Positions 13,610-32,440 of a DNA stretch of 64,000 bases are shown here, one piece after another. The notes below the pieces were generated by a model, which did no database searches, was not told where the DNA came from, and was given only the letters and a program-made list of their open reading frames with translations. This stretch comes from Squalus acanthias (lineage: Eukaryota): the NCBI GenBank assembly GCA_030390025.1, contig CM059431.1, positions 143,284,001 through 143,348,000 on the forward strand. The letters run 5' to 3'. Each line of letters starts with the position of its first letter. The first letter of the stretch is position 1. A program made the translations under genes and the position numbers.

Positions 13610-14030
13610 TAACGGTGTTCCTCCTGTAGTTGTAGTACACCTACACCTCGAGTAGAGGTGACCGTGCTACTCCTGTACTCGTGGAACCCTACACTTAAAC
13701 TCGAGTTGACCGTGCTACTCCTCTACTGGTGGGGCCACTACACATACACTAGTGGAGAAAGTGCTCCTCCGGTGCTAGTGGCAATCTACAGTTACAGGAG
13801 ATTTGAACATCCTGCTCCGGCAATAGTGGGAGCCCTGCACTTAAATGAGTGGTGAACGTGGTCATCTGGTACAAGTGGTTCCATAAATTACACCAGTGGT
13901 GATCCTGCTTCTATGGTACTAGTGGTACCCCTACACATACATTAGATATGACCGTGCTCTTCTGGTAATAAGGTGCCTACAGTTACACCGGAGGTGACAA
14001 TGCTCGTCCGCTGCTATAGCTGATTCTATT
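13610..14030. repeat. Degenerate 48-bp minisatellite (~8-9 units)
   Basis: accgtgctactcct at 13661 and 13709, with further decayed copies of gtgaccgtgct...gtactagtgg...cctacac. Confidence 0.7.
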
Positions 14031-14159
14031 CTTGTTCGAGGCCCCACTCTTGTTGCAATGACGGTGACTCAACTACTGCAATAATGGCCATGACTCTACT
14101 TTTGCAGCTCTGGTGGAACACCTACTGCTGGGAGACAGGGACTGATCAGTTTTGCAGTA

Positions 14160-14592
14160 ATGAAAGACTTGCATTTATATAGCGCCTTTCACGACCAACG
14201 GACGTCCCAAAGCGCTTTACAAATGTACCTATTGAATTGTAGTTACTGTTGTAATGTAGGAAACGCGGCAGCCAATTTGCGCACAGAAAGCTCCCAGAAA
14301 CAGCAATGTGATAATGACCAGATAATGTTGATTGAGAGATAGATATTATCTAGGAAACCCTGTGAAACTCACCTGCTCTTCTTCGAAATAGCGCCATAGG
14401 ATCTTTTACGTCCACCTGAGAGAGCGGCTGGGGCCTCGGTTTAACGTCTCATCCGAAAGACGGCACTTCCGACACTCCCTCAATACTGCACTGGAGTGTC
14501 AGCCTAATTTTTTTGCGCGCAAGTCCTTGGTAATTGAACACACAGCCTTCTAACTCAGAGGCGAGGGTGCTACCAACTGAGCCACAGCTGAC
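14160..14592 (-). mobile_element. Deu-domain SINE (SacSINE1/AmnSINE-like), near full length
   Basis: Core gggcctcggtttaacgtctcatccgaaagacggcac, tRNA-like head near 14530-14590 and L2-type tail gacttgcatttatatagcgcc. Confidence 0.85.
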
Positions 14593-16784: not shown

Positions 16785-19062
16785 GTGTGTGTGTGCGAGG
16801 CCGTTGTAGCAGAGCCTGGTCTCCAATCGTTTTGGTTCCCCTTTGCATTGGACCAAGACCTTGCTCTGTCAAGCCCGTGTGGTAGTTGGTGTGCAACGGC
16901 CACCCCACGTTAGAAGAATTCACGCACAGGCATCTTTCACCCTTTAAAATGAAGTTCGGGACCTGGAAAGTCAGAACCCTCATGTACAACCCCATGAGTG
17001 ACAGACAGTAATACCGTACTGCTACCATTGCCCGAGAGCTCAGACTTTTCGACATTGACATCGCCACAATAAATGAAGGTCTGCTCAAGGAGCAAGGCGG
17101 TGGCTACACTTTCTTCTGGAAAGGCAATCTTGAAGAAGAACGCCGCCTCCATGGGGTAGGCTTCACCATAAAAAATGAACTATTTGGGCGCCTCAGAGAC
17201 TCTCCTCGCGGTATGAACGAGCGCCTCATGACTCTTCGGCTCACCCTAGCCCTGAACCAGTGCACTACCGTCATCAGTGAGTACACCCCAACACTGGAAG
17301 ACACAGACGAGACCAAAGAGGAATTCTACTCCAACCTTGAACAATCCCTGTCCCGAGTCCCAACGGGTGACAAGCTGAACCTCCTTGGCGAATTTAATGC
17401 CGGAGTTGGATAGGACACAGACCTCTGGGGAGGTGTGATCGGCAGAGAGCGGGTAGGGAAAGCCAACTCCAACGGTACGCTCCTCCTGTCGAAATGCTTA
17501 AAACATGGCCTTGTCATAACCAACACCTTGTTCCATCAGAGAGACAAGTAGAGGGCTTCATGGCAGAACCCTCGCTCCAAGCACTGCCATCTGCTGGGCT
17601 ACGTCATCGTCTGAGCGAGGGACCGCAAGGACGTATGCGTCACCTGTGCCATGACAGGATCTGACGACTGCTGGACAGACCACCGCCTAATCCATTCTGT
17701 GATCTCCATCAATGTAGCCCCAAAATAGCGGTGGCAACAGAAACAATGCCGCAGGAAAATCAACGCTGGAGCACGCAAAGACCCTGCTAAGAAAGCTCTA
17801 TTCAGCCTGTGCCTCACAAACAACCTAACGACTCCCAGTGATGCAGAGAAACAGAGTGTCCACAGCACCTGGTCTGCACAAGAGGCCTCCATAATCAACA
17901 CCTGTGAAGAGACGCTCGGTCACTCGAACAGGAAACAACAAGACTGGTTTGATGAGAATGACCAGGAGATCCAGGAGCTAATAAGCTGCAAGCGCAAGGC
18001 ATTCCTGATCTGGAATCAGAACAGAACTCGAGAACAAGAAAACAGCTCTACAGAGGCCAGAAAGCCGAGGTCCAACAAAAAACTCGCGACCTAAAGAACA
18101 GATGGTGTGTGTGTGCGAGGCCGTTGTAGCAGAGCCTGGTCTCCAATCGTCTTGGTTCCCCTTTCCATTGGACCAAGACCTTGCTCTGTCAAGCCCGTGT
18201 GGTAGATGGTGTGCAACGGCCACCCCACGTTAGAAGAATTCACGCACAGGCATCTTTCACCCTTTAAAATGAAGTTCGGGACCTGGAAAGTCAGAACCCT
18301 CATGTACAACCGCATGAGTGACAGACAGTAATGCCGTAATGCTACCATTGCCCGAGAGCTCAGACTTTTCGGCATTGACATCGCCACAATAAATGAAGGC
18401 CTGCTCAAGGAGCAAGGCGGTGGCTACAATTTCTTCTGGAAAGGCAATCTTGAAGAAGAACGCCGCCGCCATGGGGTAGGCTTCACCATAAAAGAGAAAT
18501 TGGAGGAGATCCAGCAGCTAGCCGGGAACAACGATGTGCGTGGATTCTTTAGTGCACTCAAGACCATCTACGACCCAAGCACCCAAGGTCCTACACCACT
18601 GCTGGCCAAGAACGAAGAGGTACTCATCAAGGTCAGAGAGGCAGTCAGTGCCCGCTGGAAGGATTACTTCGAAGATCACCTGAACCAAGACTCTGTTTTC
18701 GACGCAAGTGTCCTCAACTCCATCCCGCAGCATGCTACCCGCCACCATCTCAGCACAACCCCAGCCCGGCATGAGGTTGAAAAGGCCATCCGACAACTGA
18801 AGAACAAGAAGGTCTCAGGAACAGATGGAATCCCTGCCGAGGCACTAAAGCATGGCGGAGAAGCACTACTGGTGCGAATTCATGAACTAATTTCTCTTAT
18901 CTGGAAGGAGGAGAGCATGCCAGGCGATCTCAGAGACTTCGTAATTGTTACCATCTTCAAGAAAGGTGAAAAGTCCGATTGTGGTAATTACAGAGGGCTT
19001 TCCCTGCTGTCTGCCACAGGGAAAGTCATCGGAAGAATCCTTCTCAATCGCCTTCTCCCAGT
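16785..19062 (+). mobile_element. RTE-clade LINE (APE + start of RT), cut off by an LTR
   Basis: MKFGTWKVRTL at 16949, YTPTLE, LLGEFNAGVG, GTDGIPAE and KKGEKSDCGNYRGLSLLS. Ends abruptly at the TGTTA of the LTR at 19063. Confidence 0.9.
18105..18493 (+). repeat. 389-bp duplicate of the RTE 5' end (16785-17173)
   Basis: About 10 substitutions between copies by manual count; both copies share an in-frame TAA. Confidence 0.95.
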
Positions 19063-20631
19063 TGTTAGAAGTAGCTGTTAGTTTCATAGATGGATTTTAA
19101 CCCTTAGAACAGAGACTGACAAACATGCAGCTGGGAACAGATAGCAAAAATGCGAGCAAGGTCGAATGTCAAGCATCAAAAGAAAAATAGAAGTGATAAG
19201 GGAATCGTAAAATGCAAAACAACGCAGGGTGGTGGGATAATAGACAAAAATGAAGCCGAAAAGTCATACAATGTCCTTAAAGAAACATAACAAAACATGC
19301 CTCAGAAAGATAAGACGGAGGCCTTGTCAGTCATGCCGAAAGGGACGGTGCGGGATGCTTTCCCGCTTCACAATTGGACAATAGGATGGGGGATCAAATG
19401 ATTGACACCAGGTGATTACCATCCCACCGAAATAACTATAAATATAGACCATCGAGAGATGGCTACGGACTAATACTTTGGTCAAGTTTAGCCTCTGAGT
19501 TGGCCTAACACCTCCAACAGCTTGAGAGGTGACCCAATGGAAGTGACCACTGCAGCAGACTGCAGGAATCCACCCAATCCAAGACCACCGTACTGCCTCC
19601 CCGTGCGTCCGGTCGTGTCATTCCGATTCGGGAGTCGTAGATCGCTCTCTACTGTCATGGGTTGTATGACTGTTATACTCAGCTTAAACCATATGTAACA
19701 TCTGGTTATGCTTTAAAACTGTAGCTCTTTAATAAAAGCCTTGCAACTGCTAAAACCCTTTGTGAAATCTGTGTTGGATTCGAATTTGGAGAAACCCCAG
19801 ACGGAGGCGGAATTGAGGACAAGTTCAAAATTTATTACAATAACCAAAAGACTTGTGCACAAGGATGAGCCACTCAGCTTCCTCAAGCTAGGGGTGCACT
19901 CTCGAGGGACAAGTAGCGGTTCATTCAAGTTATAGAATTCTATAAGCAACGCCCACCTACTACAGAATGTGGACGTACACGTACAAACAGTGACACAACA
20001 GTTACTCTTTATTGGCTTATGTGGTTAGTCACTCAACTGTCGGGCCCTCCCCTTAAACTCGGATACCCTCTGACCATGCCAGTCACAGATGTTGGTTGTC
20101 TCATCCTACTCACCACATTCCTGCTTTTATCTCTTCCCCGTTGTCGGCATAGTTTATAGTTTGAGAAAATATGTTTTATCCTTAACTGTCGAACAAGCAG
20201 GATGGCTACAAGGCCGCAGTAATTCGTGTACCCTGTGACTGGAACAATGTTGGTTGTTAATTGTACCCTTATTTCCTGGGAGGACAGGCCGTGTTTAGAC
20301 AATGGCTTTACTGAGGCTGTGAATACACACATTCCGAAGTTTGATAAGTTAAGTGGCGTCTTGCAGTCTGCAAATGTGCTTCTGTCAGCTAAACACAATC
20401 TATGGGTAAATAGAGGGTTAACATAGTCAAGTATCCCAGAATTCATTGGGAACAAGCTGGACCTTTCAGTTCCCCCTTCCAACTCCTGGAAAGGACCCTT
20501 AAAGCGGGGTTGGGGAGTGTGCTCTCTACGCTACGATAAGTGTGATAAGCTGGTGGGTTTATAGTATGTCAGAAACGCATATAGGTTTGCCCAGATCAAA
20601 CAGCACGAATGATGAAGGTTTTCCTGTAACC
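19063..20631 (-). repeat. 3' LTR of element 2 (interrupted by a solo LTR)
   Basis: TGTTA...TAAC(C) termini, minus-strand AATAAA at ~20008 and TATAAA at ~20558, next to the PPT. Confidence 0.7.
19076..19911 (+). mobile_element. Solo LTR (836 bp)
   Basis: TG...CA termini flanked by the 6-bp direct repeat AGTAGC (19070-19075 / 19912-19917). TATAAA at 19437 and AATAAA at 19731. Confidence 0.8.
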
Positions 20632-20823
20632 CCCTCCCCCCAATTTGTTCTATACTTCCCCCCACCCCCCTAGGCCTTTGCCTATTCTAGGTAGGCCGCA
20701 CAATTGTTGCATATGGTCTAGTGTGAATCCTATCGGGGTGGCCACCCGTTGAGGCACCAGGTATGCATCAGATGAGAAAAGTTAATATTTAGGCATTCCC
20801 TGATTCATTATACGATTGCTTCA

Positions 20824-22887
20824 TTATTCATACACTTGGTTTTTCCAACAAGTTGTTAAAGTCATCATCTGAAACGCTTGGAGTAGGGGCAGTATAAGCA
20901 TTAGCAGTTTTAACCATTGTTTTGCAATTTGTTTCGCCCGAGTCCATTTATATTTCCTGCATGTCATACATAACAAGGTCAGGACAACTATTAACTGCAC
21001 CACGACTAATACATGTGAAATCAATCGGATCCATGGATGGATCTGTATATTTAGTCCCCAGACCCAAATGCCATCCACCCATGTGGTCACCTTGATCGCG
21101 TCGATATCTTTCTTTAAATCCGTGTTCCGTTGTTGCAGAGTATAGTACACCTCTTGGGAGAGCCGTATCTCCTTCCGCAACTGCCTCAGGTGTTCGGGCA
21201 GTGGGGGTATCGGATACCCAAAGGTGTTGATGAAGTTCCATAATCCATACTTGATGTCTTCAGACACTTGAAGAGAGTTAATATTAAACTGGTGTATGTT
21301 CACCAACTCCTCGTGTCAAATCCGTACCGGAACTGCTGGTGTGAAGCAGAACTCTGGACTGGGGATGTCGCAAAAGTCTTCAAGTTGGTCATTACACAGT
21401 ATTCGCCTTTGCCGGCATATGCCACCTGGGTGGGCTTTGAGGCTGCGTCCAATGCCTCCATGGTGCAGTTAATTTCCATGCCTGTGTTGTTGAAACCACA
21501 TTGGGCTTGCGGGTTTTGGCTGATTGCATGCGGACACAGGATGATGGCATGTCTGGTGACACATCCCTCCAGCTTGGTACCCATCCGGTTTCCTTTCACC
21601 ATCACTGCGTAAGGTAACATATTGTGGTAAGATATATGCATGCCATCTTTTAGTATACAAATATTTTGTATCTGATATACCTCCCACCCTTGTTTCTCCG
21701 GTGTCATCACCGGGACGACCAAAACTAAACCCAGGACCCCTCCCCTCCCCCCCCCCCCCCGGTCTGGTTGGATTTGACCTACGTGGTGTATACCCGTACC
21801 ATGGCTCGGAATTGACAAACTGTAATATTGAGGCTACTCAAGAGACGTTTGAGCACACCCACCCCAGCATGTAGCTAGTCAGGGGCCCTTTCAACTGTTG
21901 GTTGGTAATCCACAGCGGTACCTCCCCTGCCTGTATCTGTTCCAGGTTTTCTCGGGTTTGCTCCACTATCCAATTCCCATATGTGCTGCAAACGTCGTTT
22001 GCTGCTGCCTGCTGTGAGGCATTGTATTCTTTTTTAATTAACTTTTTATAGCCTGCATGTGTGTTTCTAATACAGTAGCTATATCCTGGAGGTGTACGGT
22101 TAATATCTGGTCCTCCTTTAACTCTTGGCCCTCATTCTTATTCTGCTCTTGTAAGATGGCTTTAATGTGGGAACCCAGATCCCAGACCTTCTGATCTATG
22201 GTAGCCAGATCAATGGTGTTAACGGCCGATGTGCTGGTGTTAGAGACCGTCGCTGCATCATTAACTAAAGACCTCTTACGTCGCCATGCCCGCCGGCTTC
22301 CCTGTCTATATCTGCCTCCGCTATGATCCGCGCCTTGTTTCAATACCTGTGTTAGAAGGCGCTGGTATAACTGTTGGGTTTGTGGTGAACACCAAGCAGG
22401 CAGGGCGGTGTTGGCCAGGTTCAGCACCACTGACACTAATTCATGACGCACGTTATCATACAATATATCCCCAGTACGGATGAACACCAGCCCACTAGCA
22501 GGTCAGTGGCTCCCGCTCTGGGGAGGATTGTGTCATGGAAACCACTGGGGGCGGGGGTGTGAGGGAGGTTGTGCACCCCAGTAGCAGTGAATCACAAGTG
22601 GTAGCCCGGGCTCCTCGTATTGTTCTGTAATCCCGAAAGCTTGACATCTCTCTAGGGTAGGCGTACATAAGGGTTTCCCAACGCCCCGCATTATTCTGGC
22701 AAAATATCCTGTCCTTTCTTCCTGTGATTTTACTGGTACAGACCCCCTTGTGTGTTTTGTATGGACCAGTGTTCATCTCACAGAAAAAGGGGGCTCCCGG
22801 CCGGTCGACGCACGACCCCAGCGCTGTGGTGGGTGTTGTTTGTTCGCCGAACAGTAACCCCATCATTCCCATGATAAGCCACCCCAT
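20824..22887 (-). pseudogene. Envelope glycoprotein, F-like class I fusion protein, frameshifted
   Basis: Signal peptide MGWLIMGMMGLLFG, furin site RRKR (22272-22283), heptad region, LEQIQAGEVPLWI, Cys-rich GCVTRHAIILC...CGFN...NCT...GEYCV, WxxGLN...HPW, and TM ISHVLVVVQLIVVLTLL. Confidence 0.85.
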
Positions 22888-23223
22888 CGTTACACTATAC
22901 CACCGCTAGGCATAAAGAGTCCAGTTTGTTGAGCAGTCTCGGCACTAGCTTGTGGTAACTAGCATGCTCTCTCTCTCTCTCTCTCCCTCTGACCCCCTGT
23001 CTGTCACCAGCCCCCTTTCGGTCTGTCCTGCTATTAGCCGTGTGCGCAAGGCTTGAAGCAGGGTTGAGGCTACTTCATAAATGGCGTTGAGGCGGAGGCT
23101 GTGGCCTTGTGACAGTGGCTCAATGTAACTTACCTGACTTATCGTAATTCAGTGAGGGTTAGTAGCCGTCGGACGGCAATGTGTGAAGACAGGTTGCAGT
23201 GTCCTCCTTCGGAGGTAGGAGGG

Positions 23224-23562
23224 TCAATAAAAGGGGGTGGATATCCCCTGGGGTAGGTCCTCCAGTCCCGACACCAGCGGTTCCCAAAGAGCAGCTGTGT
23301 CTCGGAACCGGTCTATCTCCTCTGCGCGGGGTAGGGTGAATAAAAAATTCTGAGTTTTGTTGGGATGTAGAGCGAGGGGTCCTGTAGCCCTGCCACAAAA
23401 GGGAGACAATCGGAACTCTAGAGTCAAGGGGTGAGTTCCGGGGAAGGTCAGAGTGGTATAGTAATGAGAGTTCGCAGGATCCCTGGTTAAGTCGAAAAAC
23501 TGGACCGCCGAAAGGTCGACATCCCCGGAAGTGGTGGCAGCACTGAGGTCGGGCCCGCTCAT
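23224..23562 (-). CDS. Putative accessory ORF (112 aa, MSGPDLSAATT...) between pol remnant and env
   Basis: The ATG directly follows a strong acceptor cctgtctctttcttacag. No homology recognised. Confidence 0.45.
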   Translation of the reverse strand: MSGPDLSAATTSGDVDLSAVQFFDLTRDPANSHYYTTLTFPGTHPLTLEFRLSPFCGRATGPLALHPNKTQNFLFTLPRAEEIDRFRDTAALWEPLVSGLEDLPQGISTPFY

Positions 23563-23736
23563 CTGTAAGAAAGAGACAGGCAAAATAGCGCCCCGAAGAA
23601 TCAACTTAGTCCTTCGAAATCCGGTCCTGAGCAAATATAGGGGAGAAAAGGCAGGTCAATACTCGTTATTATTTCCTTTTAATCATAAGGTCCCCAAGAG
23701 ATGGGGAAATCTCTTCCCCGGGCCACATCACCGGCT

Positions 23737-24850
23737 TCATCTGGCTCCAGTGTCTCCATCTGGTTTCCACACTGGCCATACTGGGGAGTTGGTACGGGAG
23801 CGGGTCTTTGTCACTATACCGGTTTCGAATAAGTCCACTACTATGGACTCAATGGCCTGTTGAGCTTCTGATCGGAGTGGGTATTGTCGGTGGGCCTCGT
23901 GGTAGGAACCGTGGACCCTAACTGGGACCCTCTCCGCTCTACCACAGTCTAATTTGTGGGTGGCCCATGCAAGAGGGAAAGCCTCGCAAACTCTCCCCCA
24001 TGGTCCTTCCTCCGCCCATGTGCGCTTAACCGGACGGAGGGCTTTTACTCTGCATTGTCGGGCTTTATATTCCTGGAAGGGAAATCTCCCCCCTTCGGGC
24101 CCCTCTACTTCCAATAGATGATCACTTAGGAGCAAATTTGCCTCTATCTGATGGAGAATATCCATACCTAAGAGCAGCTCCTCACTGTTGGGACCTACCC
24201 ACAGGGTGACCCACCAGGTATGACCTCCTGGGGGCTGGCCCTCATTCGGAGGGCGGTTTGGTAGGGCCTTTCCAGTCCCCGGAGTAGACAATCTATAAAC
24301 CGTGGGTCGTCGTGATTAGCGGGAATGTCATTCGTCTGGCCCCAATGTTCATACTGCTCGATTACTCGATCAATGTACACATTGGGGTTTTCTCCGGGAC
24401 TCTGGCGCAGGGCGGTGAGCCCCGTCCAGGTAGCGGTGCCGTTGTCCAGTCCGGTCTGAACCCAAGTTTTCAAACTTCGAATTGGATCTCATACTCCGCT
24501 ATCGTGGCTGGGGCATTTAGGACATGGTGTCCCAAAGCCCCATAAACCATAGAGGGACATTTCACCTCGATAATATATTTTACGTCTTGTATGGACAAAT
24601 TAAAGTGCTGAGCAGCACTTCTTATTCATGCCCATACTTCGACGTTAGAATTGTGTCTTTTGAGATCGGGAATGAGGAGGATGACGCTGGATCTCTCCTG
24701 GGGCGTAAAAGACTGTGCCTCGCCCATCGTACCCAGTCCACCTATATCTGGGTTTTGGGATCTTACCACCTGATTAACTCGGATGGGGGCCATGGGGTTG
24801 CATTTTTCGTAGCCAAGACTGAAGAGGTGCAGTGGATTAGATACGAGCGT
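23737..24850 (-). pseudogene. gag (capsid), protease C-half and RT N-terminus, with internal deletions
   Basis: TPWPPSEL (~24780-24800), MHR-like motif, GMDIL, QYPL and NSPVWPV. No DTG, no YxDD, and no RNase H or integrase core seen. Confidence 0.8.
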
Positions 24851-25174
24851 ATTCGGGGGGGTGGAGCATGTAGGTTGGGTATCCTCGACTCATTGAACCT
24901 CTACGGCCCCCGATGGGGGCCCGGGTATAAGATTGGCGTGTCTCGAGTCTCTTTTTGTAGAGACACGACAATGTCACCCCAGCTTTTTAAGTCGTCTAGA
25001 TTCTCAGAATCTGGTGGCTTGAGGTGCAGGAGACTACTGACTTGGACTTTCGCATCCTGCACGGGTCGAAAAAATTCTTGTAACGGGGCCGGTCTCCCCG
25101 CCCCCCCCCCCCTTGTCCACGATTATGGGGCCCATCTGATCCATCCAACTAGCACACAAAACCGCCCCGTACTT

Positions 25175-25318
25175 GGGAGTTTGCTGAGCGCAAATTGGCT
25201 GCCGCGTTTCATACCTTACAACCGTAACTATACTTCAAAAGTACTTCATTGGCTGGAAAGAGCTTTGGGACGACTGATCGTCAAGAAAGGAGCTATATAA
25301 ATGCAAGTCTTTCTTTAT
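25175..25318 (+). mobile_element. Deu-SINE/L2 3' tail
   Basis: gcgcaaattggctgccgcgtttc...gctatataaatgcaagtctttcttt is the reverse complement of the tail at 14160. Confidence 0.8.
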
Positions 25319-25771: not shown

Positions 25772-28700
25772 CAGCTCCCCCCAGAATCCGCTTAGGAGGT
25801 GTGGGCAAGACGCTGCGGTGGTCTGATGGGCCAGCCGGAGCAGCTCTTGTAGGACGCCGGTGGACGTGGAACGGCCGGGCGTGGAGCAGCCGGGTGAACC
25901 GGCTTGAGGGCAGGTCGGCCACGTGGCAGTGGATGAGCTACAGGGACCTGCTCACCGGGCTCCGAGTGTGCTGGCTTGAGTCAGTCAACCAACACTTTTT
26001 CGGTCCTGTCGCCGACTTGCATGGTGAAAAATTTGTCCCCAGCATGTAGCACCTTGTAGGGCCCATTGTACGGGGGTTGAAGGGGTCCGCGGTGGGCGTC
26101 GTGCCGGATGAAAACGAACTGTGCCTGATGCAGGCTTAGTGGGACGTGTGAGGTGGATTCGCCGTGTCAGGCAATGGGCACCGGGGCGAACTGCAGCACC
26201 GGTGAGGCGAAGTCGTGGCGTTGCTGGTCGGCTGACCAGGGTGTCGTGGCGGTGGGCAGGAACTCGCCGGGTACATGCAGCAGCTGACCGTACACGAGCT
26301 CTGCTGCCGATGCGTGGAGGTCTTCTATAACCGCGGTGCGCAGGCCGAGGAGGACCCACGGAAGTCGATCGGTCCAGGCGCCATCCTGGAGGCTGGCTGG
26401 AAGAGATGCCTTCAAGGATCTGTGGAACCACTCACACAGTCCGTTGGCTTGGGGGTGGTACGCTGTGGTGCGGTGAATGGTCACCCCGAGATTGCGTGCG
26501 ACGCCGATCCAGAGTTCAGAGGTAAATTGCGGACCTCTGTCCGAAGTCATGTCAGAGGGGACGCCAAACCGTGCAAAACAGGTGCTGATGAAGGCTCTGG
26601 CGATGTCGGCGGTGGTGGTAGAGATCAGTGGAATTGCGTCGGCCCAGCGCGTGGTGCGGTCAACGATCGTCAGCAAGTGCGTGTGGCCTTGCGACGGCGG
26701 CAGGGGCCCGACGATGTCCACGTGGATGTGGACGAATCTACGCGAAGAGACGGTAAACTCCTCGAGGGGTGCTTTCGTGTGTTGCTGAACCTTGGCCGGT
26801 TGGCAGGCTAGGCAGGAGTTGGCCCAAGTACGCACATCCTTACGAAGGCCGCGCCAGACAAAGCGGTTGGCTACCAATTTGATGGATGCGTGGGCGCCGG
26901 GGTGGGAGAGGTTGTGCAGAATCTCGAATACCCGGTGGCGCCAGGACGCTGGGACGACGGGCCGAGGTTGACATAGGGATATGTCGCACTTGACCGTGAC
27001 TGCGGTCGGGCACAGGCGACGTCGGCCAGTCATAGCCCTGGTAGGTTGGTAGGTGCGGAGAGCAGATCAGGGTCGGTGATCTAGTCTGCTGCGAGCTGAG
27101 CGTAGTTGACTGCCAGGTGTGCGGCGTGGATGGCGGTGCGGGAGAGGCAGTTGGCTACCACATTGTCTCAGCCAGAGACGTGTTGGATGTCCGTGGTGAA
27201 CTCGGACACCGCCGCGAGCTGGCACTGCTGCCTGGCGGACCAGGGGTCGCTTGTCTTTGCCATTGCGAATGTCAGGGGTTTGTGGTCGACAAACGCAGTG
27301 AAGGGGTGGCCCTCCAGCAAAAAACGAAAATGGCGGACCACCAGGAACAGCGTGAGGAGTTCGCGGTCGAAGGTGCTGTACTTGACCTCCGGGGGGCATA
27401 GTTAGCGGCTGAAGAAGGCAAGTGGTTGCCAGTTGCCGTCGACCCACTGCTCATACACGGCACCGACCACGTGGTCGGAGGCGTCCGTGGTGAGCCCTAC
27501 CCTGGCATTGGGCCATGGGTGCGCGAGCAGGGTGGCGTTGGCGAGCGCGGTCTTGGTGGAGTCGAAGGCAGCTGATGCGTCTGCCGTCCATTCGACCGCC
27601 ATTTTGCCGCTCCTGCCCCGGAGGGCTTCATACAGGGGTCTCATGAGGGACGCCGCTTTGGGGATGAAGCGTTTGTAGAAATTCACCATCTCGAGGAACT
27701 CCTGGATGCCTTTGATGGTGGTGGGGCGGGGAAATTGTTGGACTGCCTGCACCTTGGTGGGCAGGGGAATGGCCCCAGCATGGGAGATGTGGTGGCCAAA
27801 GAAGTCGATCTTGTCCAGGCCGAACTGGCATTTGGCTGGGCTGAGGATGAGCCCGTGGTTGGTGAGGTTCCCGAACAGGATGCAAAGGTGTTCGAGGTGT
27901 TCCTGCTTGGAGGAACTGGCTACCAGGATGTCGTCCAGGTAGACGAACAGGTACTTCGGGTCCCGAAGGACCGAGTCCATGAGCCGTTGGCATGCCTGGG
28001 CCGCATTTTTGAGGCTGAAGGGCATCCACAGGAACTCGAAAAGGCCGAAGGGGATGATTACGGCCGTCTTGGGGACGTCCGCGGGGTGGACAGGGACTTG
28101 GTGGTAGCCGCGCACCAGGTCGACCTTGGAAAAGACTGAGCGGCCGGCCAGTCTAGCCGAGAAGTCCTGGATGTGTGGCATAGGGTACTGATCCGGGGTG
28201 GTGGCGTCGTTGAGGTGGAGGTAATCCCCGCAGGGGCGCCAACCCCCGTCTGGTTTGGGGGCGATGTGGAGTGGGGAGGCCCAGGGACTGTTGGAGCGGC
28301 GGATGATGCCGAGCTGTTCAATGGTGGCAAACCCGGTCCGCGCGATCTCCAGTTTGGCCGGGTCCAGCCTGCGGGCGTGGGCGTACACTGGGGGGTCTGT
28401 GGTGGGTATGAAGTGTTCCACCCCGTGTTTGGCAGCCTCCGCGGAGAAGGTCGGATTGGTAAGGGCTGGGAATTCGCCCAGGAGTGCCGAGTAGTCATCC
28501 GTGGCCCGAGCGTGGCACTGTTATGCCATGTCGGCGGGTTGACGGGGGGCCATGGCGCCCAGGATGGGGGATATGGTGTTCATGTCCACGAGGCGGTATC
28601 GAGGGATGTCTACCAGTAGGCCGTGGGCGCACAGGAAATTTGCGCCGATGAGAGGGGAGAGCACCTTGGCAGTGATGAACTCCTATCGGTAGCGGCGACC

Positions 28701-29930: not shown

Positions 29931-32440
29931 GAGATATTGGCTAGTTTTATATACCAGAGAATTCCCAGTCAAATTAACGCATCAAAGGCCAGGTATTGTA
30001 CCAGATGCTAAACTTCTCCCAATAGCTTGTTAAACTCTCACCTCAGCAAAATCATCGACTGAAGAGATTCTCAGTAAACATCCTCACATTTCCAATCATT
30101 GTTGAAAATCCCATTTCTGGTCGTCGACACTGGGGATCTTGAACCCAACCTAACTACCTTTCTCCAGTCCCAGTTAGTGTAGTGATGATTGGATTCTCTC
30201 TCTCCACCTTCCTAGGTTACTGATCAATCAAATAAACTTTTAACATAAATATGATTCATCTTGATTATAGAATCTGTTAAAGGAAAACAATGGGACTGTG
30301 TTCGTGATTATTAATATATTTAATTTGATAATATTTACAACGTGTTTGAATTACTTAATTTAATGTTAAATCGTACTTTTCTTTGCCCCTATTTCTAGGC
30401 AATAAAATCACTCACAATATCTGATGCCAAATCCAGCTCCGCCCGCATTGACATCCCACTGATGGTGTGCAACCAGAGGCAGAAACCTGTCTCGAGATGA
30501 CATCACAAATGAGACAGTAGCCAATCACACTGCGTCCAGGAGAAATGTCACAAAACAGCTGGACTCCCTCCCACTCGATGTGTTTCATATACAGAGTAAA
30601 GCTCCCGCTACAATGTCCAATCAAACACTCTCATGGCAGGTACAGTACGGGTTAAATATAGGGTATAGCTTCCGTTCTACTGCAACATCAAATATTCCCA
30701 GGGCAGGTACTGTAGGGGTTAAATACAGTGTAAATCTCGCTGTATTTTAGTTCATCAAGCACAGTCAACTCACATACATCATGTGTTCAATGCAGCGTAA
30801 CCTCCTCTGACACTATCCAGTGAAGCAAACCAACTCAGGCACAGCACGGTACGGTTACAGGATAAAATTCAGTGTACATGTAATTCTTAAGCGCTCCCAG
30901 GTGGGGTGTGGACAAGTTTCGCACACGAGTGAATCGCCAGTAAAATTTGCCGCATCAAATGCTGACCTTGTGGCAAATGTTGAATAGTTGCCGATACCGA
31001 TTTCGACTCTCACCTCGGCAAAATCCTGGACTTATTTGATTCTCAGGAAAGTTCCCCATCCTTCTAATCATTGCTGAAGCTTTCTGTATTATCCCGTCTT
31101 TGAATCTGGGCTCCATGATACCTCCAGTTCTGTTATATGAGCCCAATGGCGTTTTTCCAGTTCCAGGTAATGTTGTGATGATTCGACTTCTCTCTCTCTC
31201 TGCACCTTCCTGAGATTCTGTTAACCCCAAGAAACTATCAATATAAACATGATTATTAAGAATTCCATAAACTGTGATCGGAATACAATGTGAGTAATTT
31301 TCCGACTACGAATATATTTAATTTGAATATATTTACAATTAATGACATTTGATTGAATTATTTGTTTAATATTAAATTGTTCTTTTCTTTCCTTACCCCT
31401 ATTTATAGGGGCTATACTCACTCACAATATCTCTTTCCAACTCCAGCTCCGCCCACAGTAACTCACCAATGATGAGGCGTCACCAGTGGTGGAAACCTGT
31501 CTCCAGGTGACATCACAAAGGAGCCAGGAGCCAATCATACAGCAGCTAGTAAAAATGTCACAAAGCAGCAGGAGCTCCGCCCAGTCGAGGTGTCACAGTG
31601 TCACATGACCATACTCCGCTCCGAATGTGCAGTCTCACTGGGAATAAACACATGTTGTATATTAAGTCCTGTTTCAGACCCCGTTCCCATGTACTAAGAC
31701 CCCAGGCAAGGAGGAAAGCCTCGCAAAATTGCCTCTTAAGCATTTCCCTCCGAATATCCATATAAAAGGACCCACTACCAAAAATTCATCTTTTGATTTA
31801 TACACGCCAAATTCTCCCTTGCATAATATCAGGCAGAGTGTGGCAGTGGAAGGCAGGTAGAGGTAATCGTGCATCGAAGAAAATATAACAAGCTGTTCTG
31901 TGTTCTAAAACAAGTCTATTCCCTGTAACAGGAAGGGGCATCAGAGGCAATGTGGTGGGATCATCAGGTCTATTAATGTATTGAGACATTGGAGCAATAA
32001 TAGAGGTGAAATCTTGGGCATAACATTTAAAGCTCCGTCTACACTCGCCCATCAAACACTCGCAGTTAAGTTACAGCAAGAGATACATACAGTGTAAAAC
32101 TCTCTCTACACTGTACCATCAAACACTCCCAGGTAAGGCACAGCACGGGTCAGATACAGAATAAAGTTGCCTCGACACTGTTCCATCCACCATTCACCGC
32201 ACAGGTACAACACGGGTTAGAAACAGAATAAAGCACCTTCAACACTGTCCCATCGAAAACTCACAGGACACGTAAACAGGGGTTAGGTACAATATAAATC
32301 TCAACGTACAGACATTAATCAAGCACAGTGAACTCAGATACAGCATGTGTCCAAATAAGCGTACAGCTCCCCTGACACTACCGAACGAAGCACACCATCT
32401 CACGTAAAGCATGGTATGAATACAGGACAGAAATCCTTAA
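29930..32440 (-). repeat. Tandem promoter-like cassette (two copies) interleaved with 67-bp satellite arrays (~30570-30750, ~32020-32310)
   Basis: 30410-30570 resembles 31420-31600, and 29960-30400 resembles 30940-31410. Satellite unit is like agagtaaagctccctctacactgtcccatcaaacactcccagggcaggtacagcacgggttagatac. Confidence 0.85.

Follow-up and report, generated by a model that had tools for sequence, protein, structure and literature searches.

We analysed a window of 64,000 nucleotides from Squalus acanthias (assembly GCA_030390025.1, contig CM059431.1, positions 143,284,001 to 143,348,000). Positions 19772-25176 of the window (minus strand) hold a 5'-truncated, pol-deleted copy of an endogenous retrovirus (ERV). 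A first-pass annotation, made from the sequence alone, had placed an ERV with a lokiretrovirus-like, F-type envelope at 19063..25170. The ERV is there, but it ends with its 3' long terminal repeat (LTR) at 19772, the segment 19063-19771 being flank, and homology to other copies reaches 25176. The window copy is a dead, internally deleted provirus remnant. Taken together with its fuller relatives, it very probably derives from a retrovirus proper that carried an F-type Env, was not a lokiretrovirus, and entered the germ line of cartilaginous fish.

All features of the copy lie on the minus strand. The 5' part of env (22490..22887) encodes a signal peptide starting at 22887, a head of ~80 amino acids with eight cysteines, and a Pro/Thr-rich linker; it is frameshifted. 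The F-like core follows at 20824..22489 and comprises an F2-like part, the furin site RRKR (22272-22283), a long first heptad repeat (HR1), Cys-rich beta domains, a second heptad repeat (HR2, ~21091-21198), a transmembrane (TM) helix (~20968-21024) and a short tail. The core also contains LEQIQAGEVPLWI and a GC-x7-C...YCV block, and with these every env motif listed in the first-pass annotation was located. Frameshifts and stops split the window env into several open segments. Behind env, a purine run common to other copies, the polypurine tract (20469..20487), abuts the TG of the 3' LTR (19772..20468), which is 697 bp long, has the form TG...CA and matches both LTRs of other copies.

The gag remnant (24228..25176) covers the matrix/capsid region at 89% DNA identity to the gag of a fuller copy. 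It retains the capsid major homology region (MHR) RQSPGENPNVYIDRV at ~24363-24407, is frameshifted, and has lost its start and its C-terminal nucleocapsid part. Homology to other copies ends at 25176, and nothing remains of the 5' LTR, the primer site or the beginning of gag. This truncation point lies at the edge of an interspersed repeat (25174-25317), present again in opposite orientation at 14158-14296, which we take to resemble a shark SINE. The piece at 23755..24231 holds the C-terminal part of the protease and the N-terminus of the reverse transcriptase (RT), regions that give RVP and RVT_1 matches in fuller copies. Its RT start, QYPL...NSPVWPVWKPDG, lies at ~23755-23886 and, like the MHR, had been correctly recognized at first pass. 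A deletion of ~620 bp upstream of this piece removes the nucleocapsid and the protease active site. A second deletion, of ~2.8 kb of pol, joins the RT start to the last integrase codons (23689..23761) at a short shared sequence. An accessory open reading frame, here called ORFx, lies at 22905..23563 and is interrupted in the window; its ATG, at 23562, is immediately preceded by a splice acceptor.

The rest of the genome supplied fuller copies. In the 3.7 Gb searched, the env stretch was matched by 40 of 40 scored DNA candidates at 86-100% identity (183 candidates, the window itself being counted), which is more than chance and puts the family at no fewer than 40 env matches; a protein search returned 85 matches from 70 scored candidates. 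Fuller copies encode a Gag with two CCHC knuckles (Pfam zf-CCHC, E=2e-9), a protease, an RT, a tether, an RNase H and an integrase ending in an MLVIN_C-like region. Both RT_RNaseH and RNase_H were found by Pfam, and this dual RNase H, being common to all retroviruses, does not discriminate for lokiretrovirus membership. In 3 of 11 stretches, those where a motif search located the gag-pol junction, the two genes have an in-frame TAG between them. LTR pairs are whole at 7 of 10 loci and 95.2-100% identical; the other three comprise one pair aligned in two pieces, one tandem array and one locus without a long pair. A 4-bp target duplication could be read by eye at six of the seven. The primer site, 18 nt long, is the complement of a tRNA-Leu 3' terminus as encoded by a gene of this genome, with CCA added. 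Related copies thus carry all hallmarks of Retroviridae proper: LTRs, tRNA primer site, polypurine tract, gag-pro-pol-env, protease-RT-tether-RNase H-integrase order and a retroviral RT. The family is a recently active, multi-copy ERV, and dN/dS ratios of 0.18-0.39 (eight comparisons) and 0.12-0.13 against a sister subfamily indicate that its Env is under purifying selection.

The RT-integrase deletion junction of the window copy is common to three independent insertions with differing flanks (C9, C6b, C14), so the deleted form itself was propagated. The junction is also present at two loci (C7:146.55 Mb and 139.60 Mb) that are segmental duplicates of the window region with its flanks (97-98%) rather than independent insertions. 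Further copies (L030, L031, L032, L038-L039) have LTRs 99.7-100% identical and almost no pol while keeping gag, ORFx and env sequence; one locus among them is a tandem array sharing LTRs. Pol-poor copies with near-identical LTRs suggest amplification in trans. Another locus (C3623) carries the window's 3' flank at 91% identity with a gag at only 84%, and may be a recombinant duplicate. Among named homologues, those of Heptranchias perlo are closest (env 74%, integrase piece 86% identical), which points to a chondrichthyan host; word-index protein searches returned 2 and 3 Heptranchias proteins, and an exhaustive search returned 50 proteins.

To characterize the envelope, we used the natural open frame of one copy (L014, 630 amino acids), modelled with a 37-row alignment (pLDDT 71, pTM 0.53); its first ~40 residues differ in frame from other copies and were ignored. 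This Env has 420 residues between RRKR and the TM helix (Kyte-Doolittle 2.97), bearing out the ectodomain of more than 400 codons after the cleavage site noted at first pass. The short TM with CX6CC and an immunosuppressive domain that typifies gamma-type Env is absent, as had been noted from the window: L014 has no CX6CC and the Pfam search gave no TLV_coat match. All matches listed by Foldseek against the PDB were paramyxo- or pneumovirus F proteins (respiratory syncytial virus, parainfluenza, Newcastle disease virus; best E=8.7e-10). Against BFVD, the best 50 of 53 significant matches, headed by one that carries no name, included lispivirus, baculovirus and paramyxovirus F proteins, as well as the Envs of walleye epidermal hyperplasia virus 1 (WEHV1; Q9WHI8, 3e-13), walleye dermal sarcoma virus (WDSV; A4GTG3, 1e-8) and feline foamy virus (2e-4). 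The F-like model is thus matched by predicted walleye epsilonretrovirus Envs, for which our literature search, covering parts of the sources, found no paper stating an F-like match. Independently of any model, a profile of the Env family matched foamy Env (E=4e-5) and lokiretrovirus (Loki) Env (E=2e-19 in a single comparison; 55 bits versus at most 4.6 for 200 shuffles), the latter at 16% identity over 270 columns. Env homologues were found in sharks, a ray, coelacanth and frogs among the 18 named of 20 looked up. We conclude that this Env is an F-type fusogen by predicted fold, backed by sequence profiles, as the first-pass annotation had proposed. It shows the features by which Loki Env is defined, namely likeness to Mononegavirales F, an RXKR site, coiled coils and a TM helix.

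Some observations count against this assignment. The Atlas search pointed to the F type too, but its recognition value of 1369 is below its confidence level. Whole-chain TM-scores were low (0.3-0.37 by query length) with a large rmsd, which reflects a monomeric model in a mixed conformation. Pfam searches of the window fragments found no fusion family and those of Env no family at all, and PF00523, which does match Loki Env (1e-5), gave no match to this Env; phmmer of the single Env against the PDB also gave no match. The segment after RRKR is weakly hydrophobic (0.87 versus 1.79 in Loki), so that no clear fusion peptide stands out.

The family's Env carries its eight-cysteine head as a module on a Pro/Thr-rich stalk, placed after the signal peptide and ahead of the F core. 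The head had no Pfam or PDB match, and AlphaFold on six sequences gave pLDDT 38 and no folded model. Related shark families have unrelated N-terminal heads on F cores 55-71% identical, including family B (core 71-72%) and family C (core 58%). When the heads of 10 Envs were aligned, only three pairs matched (the family with its sister, and two pairs of frog or unnamed rows), whereas almost all cores align. Neither Loki Env nor one unnamed homologue has a head. The genome contains no fewer than four other ERV families or subfamilies (L048-L050, L051-L054) that share an F-like Env core at 36-79% identity with differing heads, one of which (L048) gave a weak Ig_3 match (E=0.18). A young ERV elsewhere in this genome belongs to a different family within the same Env group (Env 36.5%, RT 41% identical). 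Family B is only 53% identical to the window family over an RT piece and 65% over the integrase core, and its RT groups elsewhere. Within this genome the F-type Env is found alongside two or more separate RT groups.

In other copies ORFx spans ~220 codons between pol and env. It had no match in Pfam, PDB or Atlas, and its dN/dS was 0.37-0.86 (eight comparisons). On copy L030, a GT-AG joint connects a leader donor (CAG/GT) precisely with the AG that precedes the ORFx ATG. As a caution, this joint comes from a single contig of run X2 with 30 letters on its short side, and the RNA nature of that run is guessed. No env splice joint was among the joints listed from the sequencing runs. At three loci of other families (L048, L053, L054) the gap from integrase to env is too short to hold ORFx.

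For placement of pol, the Loki references were two elements (L042, L043) fetched by RT motif, which match by eye the Loki-Bsp Pol and Env in the supplement of PMC7947760; these lokiretrovirus elements lie in metagenome-collection records, probably of fish DNA. A first RT tree kept 60 of 104 rows after removal of near-duplicate gamma-like and redundant rows. A second used 33 of these plus the two Loki rows, and a third dropped seven and added two; an integrase tree kept 35 of 37 rows and contained no CGIN1 row. The element's RT fell inside other retroviruses (93/94 in the second RT tree; 97/92, starred, in the third). It lay outside the Loki clade, outside a motif-assigned gamma/epsilon-like clade (100/98, 100/97 and 100/99 in the three RT trees, all starred) and outside the class-III-like set. 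Its nearest neighbours were ERV proteins of Pimephales, Pseudorasbora and Mustelus and unnamed records, at 52-57% identity. Gypsy rows, including the window's own Gypsy element, formed a separate clade (100/100, starred, second RT tree), which excludes the element from Metaviridae, as does its dual RNase H where that family has a single one. That Ty3/Gypsy pol (RT, RNase H, integrase) adjoins the ERV at 25950-28520 (minus strand) and served as the tree outgroup. Spumaretrovirinae do not accommodate the element either, given its MHR, its two CCHC knuckles and the in-frame TAG before pol. On sequence, then, the RT belongs to a lineage of fish and sharks that lies neither in Loki nor in the gamma/epsilon clade, within a poorly supported grade that includes snakehead retrovirus (SnRV).

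The first-pass annotation had called for an RT phylogeny of full copies with loki-, spuma-, epsilon- and Gypsy references. Loki and Gypsy rows were included and both exclude the element, but the epsilon-like rows were assigned by motif. The placement is open to objection on several counts. The non-Loki references are unnamed and motif-assigned, SnRV was equated with row P0083 by eye against a supplement, and no row is a named foamy virus, WDSV or ERV-L. Deep RT nodes are unsupported, and the integrase tree leaves the element in a polytomy, outside a starred four-row set holding Loki. A grouping with SnRV is absent from the free RT trees, and monophyly with the SnRV-like row was not rejected by the approximately unbiased (AU) test (p=0.37). 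A search of the element's own genome with one exact pattern for the Loki RT motif gave 0 matches, a weak test that does not imply absence. A viral contig search for SnRV or Loki loci returned one weak, unrelated-looking locus and otherwise none.

These results bear on what the element is. The first-pass annotation inferred a chondrichthyan loki-like lineage, which in its strongest form would be a true lokiretrovirus that reached sharks. The homology of the Envs speaks for it, as do the shared signal-RXKR-coiled coil-TM layout and dual RNase H (PMC7947760, as far as available) and an integrase core 48% identical to Loki's versus 39-45% for gamma/epsilon-like rows. Nevertheless, AU tests rejected both the element with Loki (p=0.012) and the wider clade with Loki (p=0.030). 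The RT is 35-36% identical to Loki and reads LPQGFH where Loki has CPFGY; the lokiretrovirus-like label is not supported for pol. In pairwise comparison, RNase H is 30-32% identical to Loki versus 40-41% to gamma/epsilon-like rows. Loki Env, in addition to its low identity, is headless (24 versus 133 residues from Met to the GP motif), and in the L042 and L043 pols the protease and RT are set apart by several hundred additional residues that the ERV family lacks. The first-pass annotation gave lampreys, bony fish, amphibians and reptiles, rather than sharks, as the reported hosts of lokiretroviruses. The supplement of PMC7947760 has a row Chondrichthyes 3 / 0, which we read as three genomes screened and none positive. 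We consider a lokiretroviral origin very improbable, and what survives of that proposal is the Env homology.

Two other explanations accept a pol within Retroviridae. The element might belong to the known SnRV-like clade (CmiERV lineage I), with an SnRV Env that is also of F type, in which case only the annotation is new. The RT motifs WTRLPQGFH, LDI.N.FW and LQYVDD are in common with SnRV, and the AU test quoted above leaves room for such a clade; amber readthrough and accessory ORFs are also reported for SnRV (PMC2717909, in part), and SnRV-like ERVs for elephant shark (PMC4422223, in part). Against this, the free RT trees do not join the two, RNase H and the whole integrase piece are each 32% identical to SnRV with epsilon/gamma-like rows closer, and no row named SnRV Env appeared among the best 50 of 53 BFVD matches, a library of uncertain coverage; the protein and viral contig searches likewise returned no SnRV Env sequence under that name. 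This seems to us a tentative possibility, somewhat short of an even chance. Alternatively, the pol might be that of an ordinary fish retrovirus that acquired its env at a later stage through recombination, the donor being a Loki, a foamy virus or a mononegavirus; env would then be uninformative on the ancestral retroviral envelope. Exchange of env is evident from family B, heads are unrelated between families, and epsilonretrovirus Env is treated as a recent development in a review (PMC9967133, in part). The env family is, however, deep and wide, spanning sharks, a ray, coelacanth and frogs; it occurs with at least two RT groups, and in an Env tree of 19 rows it does not sit on a short branch beside Loki. 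We regard late capture as somewhat unlikely.

The reading we prefer is that a retrovirus proper with an F-type Env invaded the germ line of a cartilaginous fish. Its genome, as seen in related copies, runs LTR, tRNA-Leu primer site, gag, amber stop, protease-RT-tether-RNase H-integrase, accessory ORF, env and LTR. Pol would be made by stop-codon readthrough, the accessory ORF would be expressed from a spliced RNA, consistent with the one joint seen, and a second spliced RNA would probably serve for Env. If it works like paramyxovirus F and foamy Env, the Env trimer would be cut at RRKR, HR1 would extend, and HR1 and HR2 would form a six-helix bundle as the membranes fuse. The small Cys-rich head on its proline-rich stalk rather likely binds the receptor, replacing the separate attachment protein of paramyxoviruses. 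Purifying selection on env suggests that the family spread by infection, and pol-deleted forms such as the window copy may have been copied in trans by helper genomes.

Since the element is not a lokiretrovirus, an F-type envelope occurs among ordinary fish retroviruses too; F-type Env is not exclusive to Loki. SnRV-like ERVs in chondrichthyans are already known, and Loki in sharks is not supported. The value of the finding lies in the link among Loki, foamy and walleye Envs through a retrovirus proper and in its variable heads. In the available parts of the literature we found no description of an F-type Env in a vertebrate ERV other than Loki or foamy, and an errantivirus preprint defers its vertebrate ERV analysis. 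Anamniote envelope surveys used gamma- and beta-type queries (10.1101/2021.11.23.469661, in part), with which an F-type class would be missed. Four scenarios for the origin of Env were left open in PMC7947760, as far as available, because Loki Env had shown no significant resemblance to the Env of retroviruses. In the present case an Env that accompanies an RT of Retroviridae proper is similar in sequence to Loki Env and foamy Env, and its predicted fold connects it with F and with walleye epsilonretrovirus Env. These links favour scenarios with an F-like Env in the common ancestor, which are now testable by an Env tree. We give nearly an even chance to the broader proposal that an F-type (class Ib) fusogen was the ancestral envelope of retroviruses and lokiretroviruses, with heads swapped on an F-core chassis and gamma/beta Env arising later. 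If so, lokiretroviruses, foamy viruses and walleye epsilonretroviruses would all have kept the F-type Env, as would a wide and so far undescribed set of retroviruses in sharks, a ray, coelacanth and frogs, of which the present family is a representative. Unrelated heads (8-Cys, 17-Cys, Ig-like, or none) would have been exchanged at the proline-rich stalk, and envelopes of the gamma and beta types would have arisen afterwards by replacement or reduction. With heads that are unrelated and cores that are close to one another, these families also offer a natural series for the addition of attachment modules to a minimal fusogen.

Elsewhere in the window, decayed LINE remnants (endonuclease-like, RT start) lie at 16785-19081 (plus strand) with a 300-bp direct repeat that is 97% identical. 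A degenerate tandem repeat with a period of ~48 bp occupies 13640-14020, and a satellite-like array lies at 30195-32434. An Rfam scan of 12000-34000 gave 0 matches.

The element can be compared with several known systems. Lokiretroviruses, described as an RT clade sister to all retroviruses (PMC7947760, in part), share its F-like Env layout, dual RNase H and LTR-gag-pol-env order, but differ in RT clade and motif; the ERV also adds a Cys-rich head and Pro-rich stalk to its divergent Env and has an accessory ORF before env. SnRV and SnRV-like ERVs, the latter known from elephant shark as CmiERV lineage I, resemble it in RT motifs, gag amber readthrough, zinc knuckles, accessory ORF, fish/shark hosts and RT tree region. 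The RT is only 41% identical to that of SnRV, however, and the ERV family has two zinc knuckles where one is stated for SnRV in the source available in part. Foamy Env is likewise F-like (Fernandez et al. 2024, PMC11468914, in part; PDB 8ozh, 8rm0, 8rm1), but its extra module is inserted between the subunits, whereas that of the ERV is N-terminal; spumaviruses also lack the MHR and zinc knuckles of the ERV Gag, and the ERV pol lies in frame behind gag. Paramyxo- and pneumovirus F proteins (PF00523; PDB 3rki, 1ztm, 3maw) share the predicted fold and domain order at only 8-14% identity and without a Pfam match, and the ERV Env differs in carrying its own head, in being retrovirus-encoded and in the weak hydrophobicity behind its cleavage site. 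Finally, the Foldseek matches of the predicted WEHV1 and WDSV models suggest an F-like core in walleye epsilonretrovirus Env, which a review describes as distinct from gamma-type Env (PMC9967133, in part). Those Envs are about twice as long (1159-1317 amino acids), and the RT of the ERV stands outside the gamma/epsilon-like clade.

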